In this document: positions 2,861 to 34,816 of the stretch, in pieces
Numbering within the stretch: position 1 is the first letter of the stretch
How the letters are laid out: every line of letters begins with the position of its first letter
IMG/VR virus record: IMGVR_UViG_3300045988_171288
Origin: a virus
Reading direction: 5' to 3' (one strand)
Length of the DNA stretch: 37,309 bases
Notes under the pieces: generated by a model
Told to the model about the DNA's origin: nothing
What the model saw: the letters and a program-made list of their open reading frames with translations, nothing else
Databases searched by the model: none
Program-made: the position numbers and the translations under genes

Positions 2861-3001
2861 ATGGAGCAGTTATATTTTGAAATTTTAGAGAATGAATTAT
2901 ACATAAGCAAGACTTGTGAAGAATGTAAAAATAGGTGTAAGGTTTATTGTTTAAGTAAAGATGCAACAATATATTGTAATAAATTTAAAAGGCTAGATTA
3001 A
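2861..3001 (+). CDS. Cys-rich 46-aa protein (below ORF-track cutoff)
   Basis: My own translation: MEQLYFEILENELYISKTCEECKNRCKVYCLSKDATIYCNKFKRLD. ATG is 1 nt after the upstream stop (coupled). A degraded copy lies at 5129-5206. Confidence 0.45.
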   Translation: MEQLYFEILENELYISKTCEECKNRCKVYCLSKDATIYCNKFKRLD

Positions 3002-3074: not shown

Positions 3075-3401
3075 ATGAAAGTAGGTGTTACATTGCTTAA
3101 GAAACTAAAGAAGGATGATTATAATTGGACTGGTAAATATATCAGAGAATACAATGAAATGGTTTCATATTATGAGAAACAGTTAGAAGAAAAGAATAGG
3201 ATCATTGAGTCTTTAAGTTTAGAAAATGATAATTTAAGAAAGAACATCAAGTTTCAAGGTAAACAGAAACAAATTTCTGATAAGGATATAGATAAAATAA
3301 GAAAATTAAAAAATGAAGGTAAAAGTTATAGTTACATATCGAATGAAACAGGCTGGAGCAAAGCAACTATAAGCAGAGTTATAAATAATAAAAATTATTA
3401 A
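3075..3401 (+). CDS. Coiled-coil protein with C-terminal resolvase-type HTH (HTH_7-like), no recombinase catalytic domain
   Basis: C-terminus reads DKDIDKIRKLKNEGKSYSYISNETGWSKATISRVIN. The start may instead be TTG at 3093, after AGGTG. Paralog of 4436-5074. Confidence 0.65.
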   Translation: MKVGVTLLKKLKKDDYNWTGKYIREYNEMVSYYEKQLEEKNRIIESLSLENDNLRKNIKFQGKQKQISDKDIDKIRKLKNEGKSYSYISNETGWSKATISRVINNKNY

Positions 3402-3485: not shown

Positions 3486-3605
3486 GTGGCAAATAGAAGA
3501 AAACAAAAGAAAAAAAAGAAGAACACAGAACTTGCGACGGCTCGAATTCTTCTTTTGATAGAAATACTTAGCATAGTAAATACTATACTAGATAAGTTTT
3601 TCTAA
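3486..3605 (+). CDS. 39-aa peptide with Lys-rich N-terminus and hydrophobic C-terminus
   Basis: GTG lies 5 nt after AGGGAGGTGA. My own translation: MANRRKQKKKKKNTELATARILLLIEILSIVNTILDKFF. It has its own promoter and terminator. Confidence 0.45.
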   Translation: MANRRKQKKKKKNTELATARILLLIEILSIVNTILDKFF

Positions 3606-3645
3606 TACTTAGGGGCGAAAGCCCTTAAGTATATAAGTTTTCTTT
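3606..3645 (+). terminator. GNRA-capped hairpin terminator
   Basis: TACTTAGGGGC-GAAA-GCCCTTAAGTA (3606-3631), followed by a T-rich tail. Confidence 0.65.
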
Positions 3646-3752
3646 CATTATACCACAATGTACTATGAACGATACAAATAAATTATTAAAAATATCAATT
3701 GCATTAGCAATAGTAAATATAGTTCTACAAATATTTTTATAGGAGATTAAAA

Positions 3753-3947
3753 ATGAGTAAAAAAAGATTAAAAGTAAATTTTAATAAAGGTGGAAATGGT
3801 GGAGTTAGTGCAAAACTAACTCTTCCAATAACAATGGTTAGAGAATTAGGAATCGATGAAGAAAATAAGTTCATTGATGTAGTTTGTGAAGATGGCAAAA
3901 TAATAATTGTTAAATCGGAAACTCAGAATAGTATAAATATATTATAA
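3753..3947 (+). CDS. AbrB/SpoVT/MazE-type looped-hinge-helix DNA-binding protein
   Basis: GVSAKLTLPITMVRELGIDEENKFIDVVCEDGKIIIVK matches the SpoVT-AbrB pattern. RBS AGGAGA. Confidence 0.6.
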   Translation: MSKKRLKVNFNKGGNGGVSAKLTLPITMVRELGIDEENKFIDVVCEDGKIIIVKSETQNSINIL

Positions 3948-4047
3948 TAATATGAAAAAAATACATTAAAATATATACTGTGTATTTTTCTGCATTTTGT
4001 AGTATAATAAAAACATAGAAATAAAAAAGAGAAATTATAATCTAGTG

Positions 4048-4125
4048 GAATAGAGTGTGATTTCTATAAATACATGTTTTTATTTATTAGAATCACTCTT
4101 ATTGCCAGTAAGAGTGATTTTTAAT
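4048..4125 (+). ncRNA. Candidate antisense RNA (type I antitoxin) overlapping the 3' end of the toxin-like ORF
   Basis: Plus-strand TATAAT at 4036-4041 (alternative at 3993-3998). Hairpin AATCACTCTT / AAGAGTGATT (4091-4119), followed by TTTTT. Confidence 0.35.
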
Positions 4126-4202
4126 TTATCATAAATAAATGCTCCGATGATGCTAATGATTATAGCATCAGAGTTATTTAATAATAACTTTAAAATTTCC
4201 AT
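4080..4202 (-). CDS. 40-aa hydrophobic peptide with charged tail, type I toxin-like
   Basis: MEILKLLLNNSDAIIISIIGAFIYDKLKITLTGNKSDSNK. ATG lies 5 nt after AGGAGGTG (4215->4208). The ORF-track start at 4262 lacks an RBS. Confidence 0.55.
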   Translation of the reverse strand: MEILKLLLNNSDAIIISIIGAFIYDKLKITLTGNKSDSNK

Positions 4203-4435
4203 ACTTACACCTCCTTTCTTTCGTGAAAGTAGGTGTTTTTTCTTTTGTATAGAAATCATCACTCTTAGATTATAATTTCTCTAAAAAATATTATAACATA
4301 AAACAATTTATTAAAATAAAATAAATTGTTAATAGTTTTACTAAAGACTTTATTTTCATAAATTAATTATTGAATAAAAATAAATATAAATGATATAATA
4401 TTTTCATAAGTTAATTTATGAAAATAGGTGATGAA

Positions 4436-5074
4436 ATGAAAATTTTTAAAGAAATATTAGATACACATACTAAGATATGTACTTGTAGAAAAGTGTATAA
4501 AATAAATGATGATATTGAAATTATAATTGACCAGAAGGACAATAAATTAGTTATGTGGGGAGTTAATCATAAAACAGATAGGTTTTTAAATTTATCTACA
4601 AAGAGATTTAAAATGCTTATGGATGGATTTAAGTCAGTAGCTAGTGATTTATATTCAAGCGGAAGTAAGAATCAAAATTACTATTACATAACTATAGGTA
4701 AATCTATTAATAATTCTAAGGCTACAGAAAATAATGATAAAGTAGATATTGATTTATTGAAAGAAGAAATAAAAAGTTTGAAAGAAAAGTTATTGTTGCT
4801 AGATAGTGAAAATAATAAGTTAAAGGAAGATCTGGAAAGATATAAAAGAGAGTATTTATATTATTCTAATGAATATACAAATTTGAAAAAAGAAAATGAA
4901 AAAGGAAAATTAAATATTCATAATGCTAGAGGAGCAGGTAGAAAGGCTAAATTTACTGATTGTCAAGTTGATGAGATAAAAAGACTTAGGGAAAGTGGAA
5001 ATACTATAAAAGAAATAGCAAAAGTATTTAATTGTTCAGTTGGTTTAATTCATAAATTAATAAATGAAAAATAA
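4436..5074 (+). CDS. Coiled-coil protein with C-terminal resolvase-type HTH (HTH_7-like), paralog of 3075-3401
   Basis: GAGRKAKFTDCQVDEIKRLRESGNTIKEIAKVFNCSVGLIHKLI resembles the DNA-binding arm plus HTH of serine recombinases. ATG at 4436 follows AGGTG. Confidence 0.65.
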   Translation: MKIFKEILDTHTKICTCRKVYKINDDIEIIIDQKDNKLVMWGVNHKTDRFLNLSTKRFKMLMDGFKSVASDLYSSGSKNQNYYYITIGKSINNSKATENNDKVDIDLLKEEIKSLKEKLLLLDSENNKLKEDLERYKREYLYYSNEYTNLKKENEKGKLNIHNARGAGRKAKFTDCQVDEIKRLRESGNTIKEIAKVFNCSVGLIHKLINEK

Positions 5075-5128
5075 ATCTAAAAACATACAATATATTCATT
5101 TATTAATTTATAAACAAAATATATATGA

Positions 5129-5206
5129 AATTTATATGGCATAAAAGTATTATGTTTATCCAAAGATGCAGTTATATACTGTAAGAAGTTTAAAAAAGGA
5201 GTTTAA
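5129..5206 (+). pseudogene. 3' remnant of the Cys-rich small ORF (copy of 2861-3001)
   Basis: Reads ..VLCLSKDAVIYCKKFKKGV* against ..VYCLSKDATIYCNKFKRLD*. About 80 percent nucleotide identity over roughly 45 nt. No start codon. Confidence 0.5.
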
Positions 5207-5529: not shown

Positions 5530-6144
5530 CTAAAAATTACTATCATATAAATCTAATATTTCCTCTTGTTCAATTCCTATATATCTAAGTGTAACAGCTT
5601 GACTTGAATGATTTAAAGCCTTCTGTAAAATTGCAAGTATCCTCGGATTACTCGAATTACTCATATATATATGATAAGACCAAGTTTTTCTTAGTGTATG
5701 TGTTCCATAGTTGCCTTTTATATTTAATTCTCTTAAAGTATTTTTTATTATTTTATGAGTACTATCTACCCTTAAAGGTTTATTTCCTTTTCTACTTTTA
5801 AATAAATAATCATCCATATCATAACTCTTTAAGCTATCTAAGTATAATTTAATACTTTCTTTGACGCTATCATTTAATTTTAAATTTCTAGTTTTATCAG
5901 TCTTTTCTTCTGTAATAACTATTTTATCTTTAAAATTACCATTATTATCTATTACATCTTTTATCTTTAATTTTAATAAATCCCCTACTCTAAGTCCTAC
6001 ATTTATTCCAACTACAAAAAGCATATAGTCCCTTTTGTTATCTTTACCTTTTAAATATTGCTTTATTTTTTGTATATCCTTTTTATTCTTCAATGGATCA
6101 ACTGTATTTGCTTTTGCTATTCCATTGCTCTTTAATCTTACCAT
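5530..6144 (-). CDS. Small tyrosine recombinase (catalytic domain only, about 204 aa)
   Basis: Motifs GLRVGDLL (Arg), HTLRKTW (HxxR) and HSSQAVTLRYI (His, Tyr). ATG at 6144 lies 7 nt after AAGGTGA. Confidence 0.8.
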   Translation of the reverse strand: MVRLKSNGIAKANTVDPLKNKKDIQKIKQYLKGKDNKRDYMLFVVGINVGLRVGDLLKLKIKDVIDNNGNFKDKIVITEEKTDKTRNLKLNDSVKESIKLYLDSLKSYDMDDYLFKSRKGNKPLRVDSTHKIIKNTLRELNIKGNYGTHTLRKTWSYHIYMSNSSNPRILAILQKALNHSSQAVTLRYIGIEQEEILDLYDSNF

Positions 6145-6327
6145 ATCAAACTCACCTTTCAATGCCAATTTACAACGATAATATATCATTAGTTGTCATT
6201 AAAAACAACTACTTTTTTATATAAATAAGCTACACCTTAGTTATAGCAATATTTTAATATGTTTTCACGAATACCAACTTTTATAATTAGTTGGTATTTG
6301 ATATAATATAATTAAGAGGTGAGTACG

Positions 6328-7239: not shown

Positions 7240-7272
7240 AAAGTAGTAGGAAGTGAATCCTACTACTTTTTA
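7238..7272. terminator. Bidirectional terminator
   Basis: AAGTAGTAGGA / TCCTACTACTT 11-bp stem flanked by an A-run and a T-run. It sits between convergent genes. Confidence 0.75.
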
Positions 7273-7302
7273 TATAATTTAAAATAATTTAATTTTTTTC
7301 AC

Positions 7303-33874: not shown

Positions 33875-34816
33875 TCAATTTATTTTTCGCATCATAACGT
33901 GGATATAAGGCATCCCTGTCCATTTATTTCTTGTTGCTTTAAATCCAACAACTTTATATCCAGGATTTAATTTTTCCATTTCTTTTTCAATTAAGTTATG
34001 ATCACTTTCCATCTTGAATATTTTTTTCTTTGATACTTTTTTAGATGTAGTTATAATAGGCTCTTTTAATCCTTGACTACATCCCCAACGTTTTTTTCCT
34101 TTTGGGTCTTTTGATAGGTAGTTAGCTAAGTCAGTTAAATGTTTTTCATCAGGATCTATTCGTCTTATATTATTTCTTCTTCCATACTTCCAGCAGTTTT
34201 CAACTTGATCCATTGTTAGTTCAGAACTCATAATCATATGTACATGATATTTTCCTTTGCCTTCTTTTGAAATCTCAATTACATACATATACTTAATTTT
34301 CTTGTACTTTTTCTTATTTATTTTGTGCGATAACTTTTTTCCTTCTTGGTGTACTTGAAGTTTCATGTATTCATAATTAAGTTTGTTTATGTATGCTCTT
34401 ACGTGCTTTTTAGCTTCTTCATAACTTTTAGGTCTATTATCATTTCTGTAGTTAAGAGTTAAATAATAATCACCTTTTCCAAAGTTAGCATTTACTTTTC
34501 TTATGAAGTGCTTAACTGCATTTTTATTATTGAGATTCTTTTGAGCCTTCTTAGTAGTTTTAACTCTAAATTCTTCAGGTATATCTTTTTTTAAGAATAC
34601 TGGGTACATTTCAAGTTCTCTTATTGGTCCTGATGTTATTGTTTTTGTTTCATATATACAATTACTTCTTGCATCTAGTATTTGATCTATATTGTTTATA
34701 TTTACAACTTCACTATCTATAGTTACTTGATGCTCCATCATTGCATCTATTAAGTTTTCAAAATCAACTTCTGTGTATAGATTTTTCTTTCTCCTTTGAC
34801 TTTTTTTAACTGACAT
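33875..34816 (-). CDS. HUH rolling-circle replication initiator (pC194/pUB110 Rep_1-like)
   Basis: Motif 1 YYLTLNY, motif 2 YHVHMIM (HUH), motif 3 LANYLSKD (catalytic Tyr). Confidence 0.7.
   Translation of the reverse strand: MSVKKSQRRKKNLYTEVDFENLIDAMMEHQVTIDSEVVNINNIDQILDARSNCIYETKTITSGPIRELEMYPVFLKKDIPEEFRVKTTKKAQKNLNNKNAVKHFIRKVNANFGKGDYYLTLNYRNDNRPKSYEEAKKHVRAYINKLNYEYMKLQVHQEGKKLSHKINKKKYKKIKYMYVIEISKEGKGKYHVHMIMSSELTMDQVENCWKYGRRNNIRRIDPDEKHLTDLANYLSKDPKGKKRWGCSQGLKEPIITTSKKVSKKKIFKMESDHNLIEKEMEKLNPGYKVVGFKATRNKWTGMPYIHVMMRKIN

Follow-up and report, generated by a model that had tools for sequence, protein, structure and literature searches.

The 37,309-nucleotide record IMGVR_UViG_3300045988_171288 of the IMG/VR virus collection, hereafter the window (the whole stretch of DNA analysed), carries a compact locus between two probable convergent promoters at 4003 and 4298. 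The minus strand holds a small open reading frame (ORF) for a 40-residue hydrophobic peptide with a strong ribosome-binding site, the plus strand a terminator for an antisense RNA within the 3′ end of that ORF, and the two flanks carry complementary arms, each accompanied by two TATAAT boxes (Table 1). Here we describe the locus as a probable type I toxin–antitoxin (TA) cassette and refer to its two predicted products as toxin and antitoxin. The inverted repeat, the ORF with its sequestered ribosome-binding site, the antisense terminator and the second TATAAT on each side (4003–4008 on the plus strand, 4290–4295 on the minus strand) had all been listed in a first-pass annotation of this DNA, and all are present.

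Table 1 Positions of the cassette elements and of the genes discussed with them
Feature	Position	Strand	Remarks
Probable toxin promoter, extended −10 TGTTATAAT	4290–4298	−	TATGnTATAAT nearly invariant in the 18-locus alignment
5′ arm, 5′ end of the toxin mRNA (AGAGAAAUUAUAAUCUAAGAGUGAUGAUUUCUAUAC)	4247–4282	−	Holds the inner TATAAT (reverse complement of 4269–4274)
Predicted toxin mRNA, ~260 nt	4023–4282	−	From a transcription start site at ~4282 to the U-run at 4027–4023
Predicted anti-Shine–Dalgarno/Shine–Dalgarno hairpin	4207–4236	−	ACACCU (4236–4231) with AGGUGU (4212–4207); hides AAGGAGGUG
Toxin ORF, 40 codons and stop	4080–4202	−	Product MEILKLLLNNSDAIIISIIGAFIYDKLKITLTGNKSDSNK; ATG at 4202, stop at 4080
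Hairpin in the ORF (UGAUGCUA...UAGCAUCA), 8 bp	4148–4170	−	Terminator-like call; helix 4, 85% paired, 2 pairs changed on both sides
Left arm	4028–4068	+	Antitoxin RNA 5′ domain; minus strand is the toxin mRNA 3′ arm; inner TATAAT 4036–4041 may be a secondary promoter
U-run straight after the 3′ arm, toxin strand	4023–4027	−	Putative toxin mRNA termination; T-run kept at alignment columns 331–336
Probable antitoxin promoter −10, outer TATAAT	4003–4008	+	Perfect in 11/11 loci of the 40-residue family examined
Predicted antitoxin RNA	4015–4125	+	~110 nt from the outer promoter; ~77 nt if started at ~4048 (inner box)
Intrinsic terminator of the antisense RNA	4091–4124	+	Hairpin 4091–4119 and U-run, within toxin codons 28–37
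ParM-like gene	1588–2535
Tyrosine recombinase	5530–6189
Rep gene	33875–34816		Far from the cassette, no overlap

The ribosome-binding site AAGGAGGTG lies 7 nt ahead of the toxin ATG. Judged by the purifying selection that acts on it, with a ratio of nonsynonymous to synonymous polymorphism (pN/pS) of 0.08–0.45 over codons 1–28, the ORF is a real gene. A 60-residue extension from a GTG start (4080–4262) was rejected, as it has no Shine–Dalgarno (SD) sequence and its start would fall inside the leader helix; in addition, most database calls of 59–67 residues diverge upstream and share the 40-residue core. The transmembrane helix with a Lys/Ser tail that had been read into the peptide is only partly borne out. 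The hydrophobic core spans 12 residues, the best 19-residue Kyte–Doolittle mean is 1.63, at the usual threshold, and the tail, with four lysines and two aspartates, leaves a net charge of +1; the corresponding values for the toxins of Clostridioides difficile are 2.3–2.4 and +6 or +7. Upstream of the core, the hydrophobic segment is interrupted by an invariant polar NNSD motif.

At the heart of the repeat is the 17-mer AGAGAAATTATAATCTA, found at 4028–4044 on the plus strand and at 4266–4282 on the minus strand with zero mismatches. These are its only two matches in the window when up to two mismatches are allowed (0.22 expected; two matches in 0 of 100 shuffles). The full complementary arms, 4028–4068 and 4247–4282, form about 34 bp, interrupted by a 7-nt internal loop and a bulge, so that the repeat is real but shorter than the 3986–4068 and 4246–4300 first assigned to it. 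Beyond the arms, only the outer TATAAT boxes are shared, the one on the plus strand (4003–4008) and the reverse complement of 4290–4295; they sit 19 and 7 nt from the repeat and are hence unequally spaced and out of register. The minus-strand outer box is preceded by TG.

Relatives of the cassette

In a collection of 5.8 billion proteins, the peptide has 42 homologues, all named hypothetical; the named sources are Paeniclostridium/Paraclostridium sordellii, Paraclostridium and Romboutsia. Loci were taken from genomes, IMG/VR, metagenomes and two P. bifermentans plasmids, which gave 40 loci whose ORF is intact, 28 distinct ones among them (single loci are labelled L003, L013 and so on). They lie in phage lysis cassettes beside ParA, on large plasmids, on viral contigs and in at least one chromosomal-looking site. 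By tblastn against plasmids, the window peptide matched only the two from P. bifermentans. In some P. sordellii-type elements, a 41-residue version of the gene occurs as a tandem pair (L048, 4565–4690 and 5001–5126; L049, 202–327 and 638–763), and these copies adjoin holin and amidase genes near ParA (CbiA/AAA_31) and a ribbon–helix–helix protein.

The link to characterized systems comes from DNA. A sensitive blastn search matched window positions 4192–4298 to Clostridioides plasmids, where the locus contains a 50-residue ORF that scores 67 bits (cut-off 60) on the NCBIfam model NF047374 (CD_typeI_toxin), ‘type I toxin-antitoxin system toxin’. Relatives of the 50-residue peptide occur in 31 phage records of C. 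difficile, among them phiCD38-2 gp33 (L016), which was named as a TA by Peltier et al. (PMC7699646). A DNA profile built from an 18-locus alignment of the window’s family (profile A3, 332 positions; nhmmer with a nominal Z of 100 Mb) is collinear with seven loci of the C. difficile type, L017, L003, L019, L018, L016, L021 and L020, from about position 13 to 312 of 332, at E-values of 2e-13 to 5e-5. All nine toxins of the C. difficile-type set, which includes these seven loci, pass NF047374. The aligned blocks comprise the outer TATGnTATAAT, the leader CTAAGAGTG, the GAAAGGAGGTG...ATG region, the CACTCT...AGAGTG hairpin and the CTCTA...TAGATTGTA 3′ arm.

Peptide comparisons give far less. Within the window’s family, 7 of the 28 peptides match NF047374 weakly (best E-value 2.3e-4, 21.5 bits) and the 60-bit cut-off is not reached. 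A profile of the 40-residue family run against 1.84 billion representative proteins returned 13 matches, 11 of them its own members, and did not reach the C. difficile toxins. Some peptides have an intermediate C terminus, KNHSNGNKSDL, which bridges the KITLTGNKSD of the window’s type and the KNHSAQKSG of C. difficile. As far as these searches go, the homology to the C. difficile modules is one of DNA and not of peptide.

The closest known systems are thus the C. difficile pairs CD0956.2/RCd10, CD2907.1/RCd9 and CD2517.1/RCd8, together with their phage and plasmid copies (PMC5961336, Maikova 2018; PMC7699646, Peltier 2020). Shared with them are the outer extended −10 promoters on both sides, a leader of 80–90 nt that hides the SD sequence and the AUG, a short antisense RNA that stops at a CACUCU/AGAGUG hairpin in the toxin 3′ coding region, ends formed by an inverted repeat, and hosts that are phages and plasmids of Peptostreptococcaceae. 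The window differs in its peptide, which has 40 instead of 47–53 residues, lacks the Lys-rich extension, carries NNSD inside the hydrophobic segment and does not pass NF047374; its subgroup also reads the terminator hairpin in another frame, and the predicted antitoxin, ~110 nt, is shorter than the 125–134 nt reported (PMC5961336). On the evidence of the alignments, the window and its relatives form an unannotated, diverged subfamily, with peptides of 40–41 residues, of the already proven C. difficile type I TA cassettes.

Relatives of those C. difficile modules have been validated experimentally (PMC5961336, PMC7699646). According to the same two papers, the toxins are membrane-associated and toxic, the antitoxins neutralize them in cis and in trans, the antisense RNA forms a full duplex with the toxin mRNA that is cleaved by RNase III, the toxin mRNAs have half-lives of 35–89 min and the antitoxins of 8–13 min, and the modules stabilize plasmids.

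At four loci (L013, L015, L032 and L044, with the match near 3001 or 1206 in each), the 5′ half of the toxin is gone and the antitoxin half is kept, a pattern expected of a costly toxin. In L032, a sister phage of the window, the junction TCCTACTACTTTTTATATA is the terminator arm found at window 7258–7276, which implies a deletion of ~3.1 kb that took with it the toxin start, ORF 4418–5074, the recombinase and a GIY-YIG gene.

Predicted RNAs and the probable role of the repeat

The first-pass annotation had taken the repeat for a pair of near-identical promoters set face to face, and this part of it is not supported in that form. The outer TATAAT is perfect at every locus of the window’s family, whereas the inner box reads TATAAT only in the window’s close relatives, TACAAT in six loci, and has decayed to TGTAAT/TGCAAT in L041, TTTAAT in L029 and L031 and TACAGT in L007, with the arms still complementary. 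Counted from the outer boxes, the predicted toxin transcription start site (TSS), at about 4282, is the first base of the repeat, the 5′ untranslated region (UTR) is 80 nt long and the two start sites lie 267 nt apart. The same boxes in the C. difficile loci predict 5′ UTRs of 80–90 nt, short antitoxins of 120–128 nt and TSS-to-TSS spans of 283–297 nt, where the published values are 83 and 88 nt, 125–134 nt and 298–306 nt (PMC5961336). The published 3′ end of the C. difficile toxin mRNA coincides with the antitoxin TSS (PMC5961336), and the ends given in Table 1 for the toxin mRNA are drawn by analogy with these homologues, which were mapped by rapid amplification of cDNA ends (RACE). Because the inner boxes decay while the arms stay paired, the outer TATAAT remains perfect and the C. 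difficile RACE sizes are reproduced, the repeat is probably transcribed sequence, forming the two ends of the toxin mRNA, which are complementary to each other and flanked by the actual promoters, and not a promoter pair.

The predicted toxin mRNA (4283–4020) folds with a free energy of −80.6 kcal/mol (z = −11.4). In this fold, a 34-bp helix closes the two ends of the molecule and is followed by UUUUU, a pattern also adopted by the C. difficile homologues. The whole structure tested comprises 64 pairs, which are 90.5% paired across the 18 loci, as against 41–50% with slid partners; 14 pairs are changed on both sides, and the observed values were reached in 0 of 500 shuffles. The end-to-end helix accounts for 34 of these pairs (helices 1 and 2, 94% and 93% paired) and for ten of those changed on both sides. 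In the window’s subfamily, differences between the arms appear as G·U on the toxin strand in 26 alignment cells (13 columns) and as A·C in 10 cells (4 columns), 7 of the 10 at the terminal pair. For an end-to-end helix in the RNA, as opposed to a repeat at the level of DNA, this is moderate evidence. The main texts of PMC5961336, PMC7699646 and PMC6563280 make no mention of such a helix.

Two further helices are predicted in the leader. Pairing of ACACCU with AGGUGU, proposed from the outset as occluding the ribosome-binding site, is present in the minimum-energy fold of the leader (z = −5.4) and is backed by covariation: this stem, helix 3, is 88.8% paired with 2 pairs changed on both sides, and RNAalifold recovers it independently. 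As an alternative, the 5′ arm can pair through its inner segment, GAUUUCUAUAC (4257–4247), with the start-codon region. This leader/AUG pairing was found in 19 of the 19 loci checked, from both subfamilies, with compensating differences (UUUCUAUAC/GUAUGGAAA, GUUCAUAC/GUAUGAAC and GUCUAUAC/GUAUGGAU, flanked by ACA/UGU or ACU/AGU). RNAalifold, run independently, retains the outer 14 bp of the end-to-end helix and assigns the inner 5′ arm to the start-codon region. The SD sequence and the AUG are both predicted to be buried, and the inner 5′ arm to have two mutually exclusive partners.

On the opposite strand, the predicted antitoxin (fold z = −5.1) is the full complement of the toxin 3′ UTR and of the final 14 codons, and its length of ~110 or ~77 nt agrees with the 80–120 nt first suggested for an antisense RNA ending at the hairpin in the ORF. 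Its 5′ domain carries GAUUUCUAUA, the same segment that pairs with the AUG region of the toxin. A terminator scan called three sites in 1.1 kb, with 0.0 expected, and the hairpin 4091–4119 with its T-run was called on the plus strand. The CACUCU...AGAGUG stem with its run of five or six U on the antisense strand is found in 27 of 27 intact loci, across both subfamilies, and its outer stem shows compensatory changes (AU, GC, CC/GG).

These nucleotides are kept across different reading frames. The window reads the heptamer in A-TCACTCT-T as I-T-L, and P. bifermentans and C. difficile read it one frame over, as (S/N)-H-S, so that the tail is KITLTGNKSD in the window’s subgroup and KSHSNGNKSD or KNHSAQKSG elsewhere. 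In L042 (1391–1738), the terminator loop TATTGCCCGTA is the exact reverse complement of the loop TACGGGCAATA of L006 (2891–3223); the RNA hairpin is kept and the peptide tail becomes KITLIARKSDFYFIINKF. Since the hairpin persists across frames and through an inverted loop, the terminator stretch is, on this comparison, constrained more by the RNA element than by the peptide.

Each toxin mRNA of either subfamily also contains the hexamers AGAGUG and CAC(A)CUCU, each of them twice (window 4053–4061, 4091–4119 and 4260–4265), which permit several mutually exclusive pairings. One of the options resembles an antiterminator, in which the antitoxin 5′ part pairs with the 5′ strand of the terminator (arms 4043–4072 and 4081–4110, 70% complementary); such pairing could give rise to the long forms of antitoxin known from C. 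difficile.

The whole window gave 0 matches to Rfam at the gathering score, and sub-threshold matches in 3950–4350, among them SpF22 at 28.9 bits (gathering score 55), were set aside as chance level. Three C. difficile loci gave no Rfam match even at E ≤ 1, which indicates that the RCd antitoxins are not in Rfam. The curated type I TA families (Sok, BsrG, SprA1 and others in Rfam; Fst, Hok, Ldr and others in Pfam) likewise gave no match at gathering threshold, in Rfam for the window and in Pfam for the peptide.

The host phage and its maintenance region

Protein family searches identify the window as a siphovirus-like phage of ~37 kb with genes for a large terminase, portal, major head protein, tape measure and tail protein, as well as an anti-repressor, a methyltransferase and a replication initiator (Rep). 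No terminase of a known phage is more than 47% identical to that of the window, and the nearest ones belong to phages of C. tetani and to phiSM101 of C. perfringens. Megablast of window 3500–5200 against GenBank phages and PLSDB plasmids gave no match, and neither did sensitive blastn against GenBank phages. The window also encodes an actin-like segregation ATPase of the ParM/ALP type and a short tyrosine recombinase of 219 residues, and the element is probably a phage-plasmid. The cassette sits in its maintenance region, with the ParM-like gene on one side and the recombinase on the other. The combination of Rep and ParM-like genes on a siphovirus-like phage makes a maintenance role for the cassette plausible, in keeping with the addiction context on a mobile element that had been suggested for it.

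Sister phages (L023–L027 and L033–L037) carry a cassette that is 99–100% identical, and in most of them the right flank, compared over window 4310–4710, falls to ~82% identity over only ~112 nt. By this comparison, the cassette abuts a recombination or mosaic boundary.

Several neighbouring sequences have possible regulatory features of their own. About 300 bp upstream of the ParM-like gene, an AT-rich cluster of palindromes and repeats with TTTTATAAAATTTT units (1195–1294) is a candidate centromere, or parC-like site. Directly upstream of the cassette, a plus-strand ORF of 64 residues (3753–3947) matches PHROG 2329 (1e-17, function unassigned) and, weakly, PHROG 4681 ‘antitoxin’ (E-value 0.039); by eye it looks AbrB/MazE/SpoVT-like and could encode a small DNA-binding regulator. 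On the other side, ORF 4418–5074 has a C-terminal resolvase-type helix–turn–helix (HTH), and a similar C-terminal HTH is found in ORF 3075–3401. Of the promoter-like sites in the region, the best one lies ahead of ORF 4418–5074 (4370–4399, TTGAAT-18-TATAAT with TG) and is overlapped by a 24-nt inverted repeat, 88% complementary, at 4351–4426; this repeat is a candidate operator.

Alternative explanations and proposed mechanism

The collinear DNA match along the whole module, together with the conserved ORF, the covarying RNA structures, the conserved terminator and the setting on a phage with Rep and ParM-like genes, makes it likely, in our judgement, that the locus is a type I TA cassette, a DNA homologue of the CD0956.2/RCd10-type modules of C. 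difficile, on a phage that is probably kept as a plasmid. The type I TA assignment, which is supported mainly by homology, had been the core of the first-pass annotation, and that interpretation appears essentially right, with four of its five points holding and the role of the repeat set aside. Some observations weigh against it. The window peptide belongs to 0 Pfam families, gives no match to NF047374 even at E ≤ 10 and none by tblastn against GenBank phages, and an hhalign comparison of the 40-residue family with the C. difficile toxin family is not significant (E-value 0.058). As the peptide is less hydrophobic and has almost no net positive charge, its toxicity is plausible and less certain than that of the 50-residue toxins. 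For the end-to-end helix, the difference in duplex energy between the strands is not significant over 21 loci (p = 0.09) and is reversed in phiCD38-2-like loci, the strand-specific signature (G·U against A·C, 26 against 10 cells) is modest, and in this window the outer and the inner TATAAT boxes could both be active.

One alternative sees the repeat as one promoter present twice, face to face, with the likeness of the arms due to a shared promoter or operator or to gene conversion. Transcription would then start ~7 nt past the inner boxes, near 4048 on the plus strand and 4262 on the minus strand. Both inner boxes are a perfect TATAAT in the window, tandem promoters have been documented for the C. 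difficile antitoxin RCd11 (PMC7699646), and identical arms would mimic the covariation of a complementary RNA, a concern to which the strand asymmetry of p = 0.09 gives no firm answer. We nevertheless regard this explanation as unlikely. The inner boxes of L041, L029, L031 and L007, and of phiCD38-2 (TATATT/TATTCT), are poor −10 elements between arms that still pair, the promoter scan called neither inner box on its own strand (4036–4041, plus; 4269–4274, minus), the outer boxes agree with the mapped 5′ UTR, antitoxin and span lengths of C. difficile, and the arm differences are mostly G·U on the toxin strand. Somewhat less likely again is a decayed or repurposed relative with a non-toxic peptide, in which the antisense RNA tunes a small membrane protein with another role, for instance in superinfection exclusion or abortive infection, and not in addiction. 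The short hydrophobic core, the invariant polar NNSD and the net charge of +1 would fit such a role, as would a peptide that falls under all family cut-offs and has chromosomal copies outside obvious mobile elements. Against it stand the strong purifying selection on the peptide, the retention of all regulatory RNA elements of the functional C. difficile modules, the functional C. difficile toxins of only 34–35 residues (PMC7699646) and the four loci that keep the antitoxin half after losing the 5′ half of the toxin.

Two further explanations seem to us highly improbable, to about the same degree. In one, the locus is an invertible DNA switch, and the nearby recombinase flips a segment of 221 bp to exchange the outer promoter available to each strand. 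Repeats of 17–34 bp around a segment of ~220 bp have a geometry that resembles the invertible switches of C. difficile, and a tyrosine recombinase and proteins with resolvase-type HTH domains are encoded nearby. Yet all 13 sister-phage loci with matching flanks (some of them the same contig in two collections) are in the orientation of the window, a conserved 7-nt loop sets the two arms apart, many unrelated genomic contexts show this architecture with no recombinase, and the discrete C. difficile transcripts are explained without inversion (PMC5961336). In the other, the antisense RNA controls replication or copy number of the phage-plasmid in the manner of CopA or RNAI, with no toxin involved. 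A convergent antisense RNA on a plasmid-like element would suit this role, and Rfam ctRNA_p42d matches weakly (14.8 bits against a gathering score of 50), but that match is at chance level, the Rep gene is distant and is not overlapped, the RNA is directed at a small ORF that is conserved and subject to purifying selection, and the homology is to TA modules.

For the type I TA cassette, we propose a mechanism in which the transcript ends, the toxicity, the half-lives of the RNAs and the role of the end-to-end helix are inferred from the C. difficile modules and from the predicted folds. The minus-strand promoter would produce an mRNA of ~260 nt for the 40-residue hydrophobic peptide, and two nested conserved helices in its 80-nt leader would bury the SD sequence and the AUG. 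Pairing of its initial ~35 nt with its final ~40 nt would close the molecule into a form that we take to be inert and long-lived; in our own interpretation, this helix adds to the stability and the ‘tight folding’ of the toxin mRNA. From the convergent promoter, an antisense RNA of ~110 nt would run to the hairpin inside the ORF. By analogy with C. difficile, this short-lived RNA would pair with the stable toxin mRNA, block its activation and direct its cleavage. Being complementary to the 3′ arm and carrying a copy of the 5′ arm, the antitoxin would displace the end helix and may reach the AUG in trans. On loss of the element, the antisense RNA would disappear first and the cell would be poisoned, so that the phage-plasmid is maintained; the toxin would be membrane-active and the cassette would stabilize a prophage or plasmid, again as in C. 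difficile.

The proposed closure of the mRNA recalls hok/Sok of plasmid R1, whose full-length toxin mRNA also has complementary 5′ and 3′ ends and a buried translation start; pairing of the ends locks the hok mRNA in a stable, inert form. Post-segregational killing, proposed here, is a further likeness. The two systems have no sequence relation and no Rfam match connects them, the role of the end pairing is deduced here from the fold, and Sok targets the 5′ leader whereas the antisense RNA of the cassette targets the 3′ end. Overlap at the 3′ ends of convergent genes and sequestration of the ribosome-binding site in the toxin mRNA are shared with SprA1/SprA1AS of Staphylococcus aureus and with bsrG/SR4 and txpA/RatA of Bacillus subtilis, type I pairs from mobile elements of Firmicutes, to which the cassette has no sequence homology (no Pfam match; Rfam BsrG at 12 bits, gathering score 55). 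SprA1AS uses a 5′ domain outside the overlap to act at the translation start. Since the antitoxin 5′ domain contains the GAUUUCUAUA segment that pairs with the AUG region, a similar action in trans is conceivable. The par module (Fst/RNA II) of Enterococcus pAD1, a plasmid addiction module, also combines convergent transcription, repeats at both RNA 5′ ends and a terminator hairpin within the overlap. The par repeats are direct in the DNA, which makes its two RNAs complementary at their 5′ ends, whereas those of the cassette are inverted and both RNAs start with the same sequence; a Pfam match to the Fst family is likewise absent.

More tentatively, and with rather less confidence than an even balance would warrant, the same RNA element may extend across the whole superfamily. 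The ends of the toxin mRNA would close, as in hok, into a stable and untranslatable form, the inner 5′ arm would switch between the 3′ end and the start codon, the antitoxin would strip off the 3′ arm and could mask the start codon in trans, and selection would keep the terminator nucleotides across reading frames and through an inverted loop.

With the cassette, the experimentally validated type I TA family of C. difficile would gain a subfamily found in Paeniclostridium, Paraclostridium, Romboutsia and Terrisporobacter, on phage-plasmids, plasmids and chromosomes and also in human-gut viral contigs; its peptides of 40–41 residues are missed by current protein models. Nucleotide-level profiles of the module recover such cassettes where searches with the peptide do not. 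In phage biology, the cassette adds to the signs that episomal prophages of clostridia-like gut bacteria have addiction cassettes beside their partition genes. If the proposed structure is right, a closing helix, combined with a leader that pairs in turn with the AUG and with the 3′ end, could explain the long half-life and the ‘tight folding’ reported for C. difficile toxin mRNAs.

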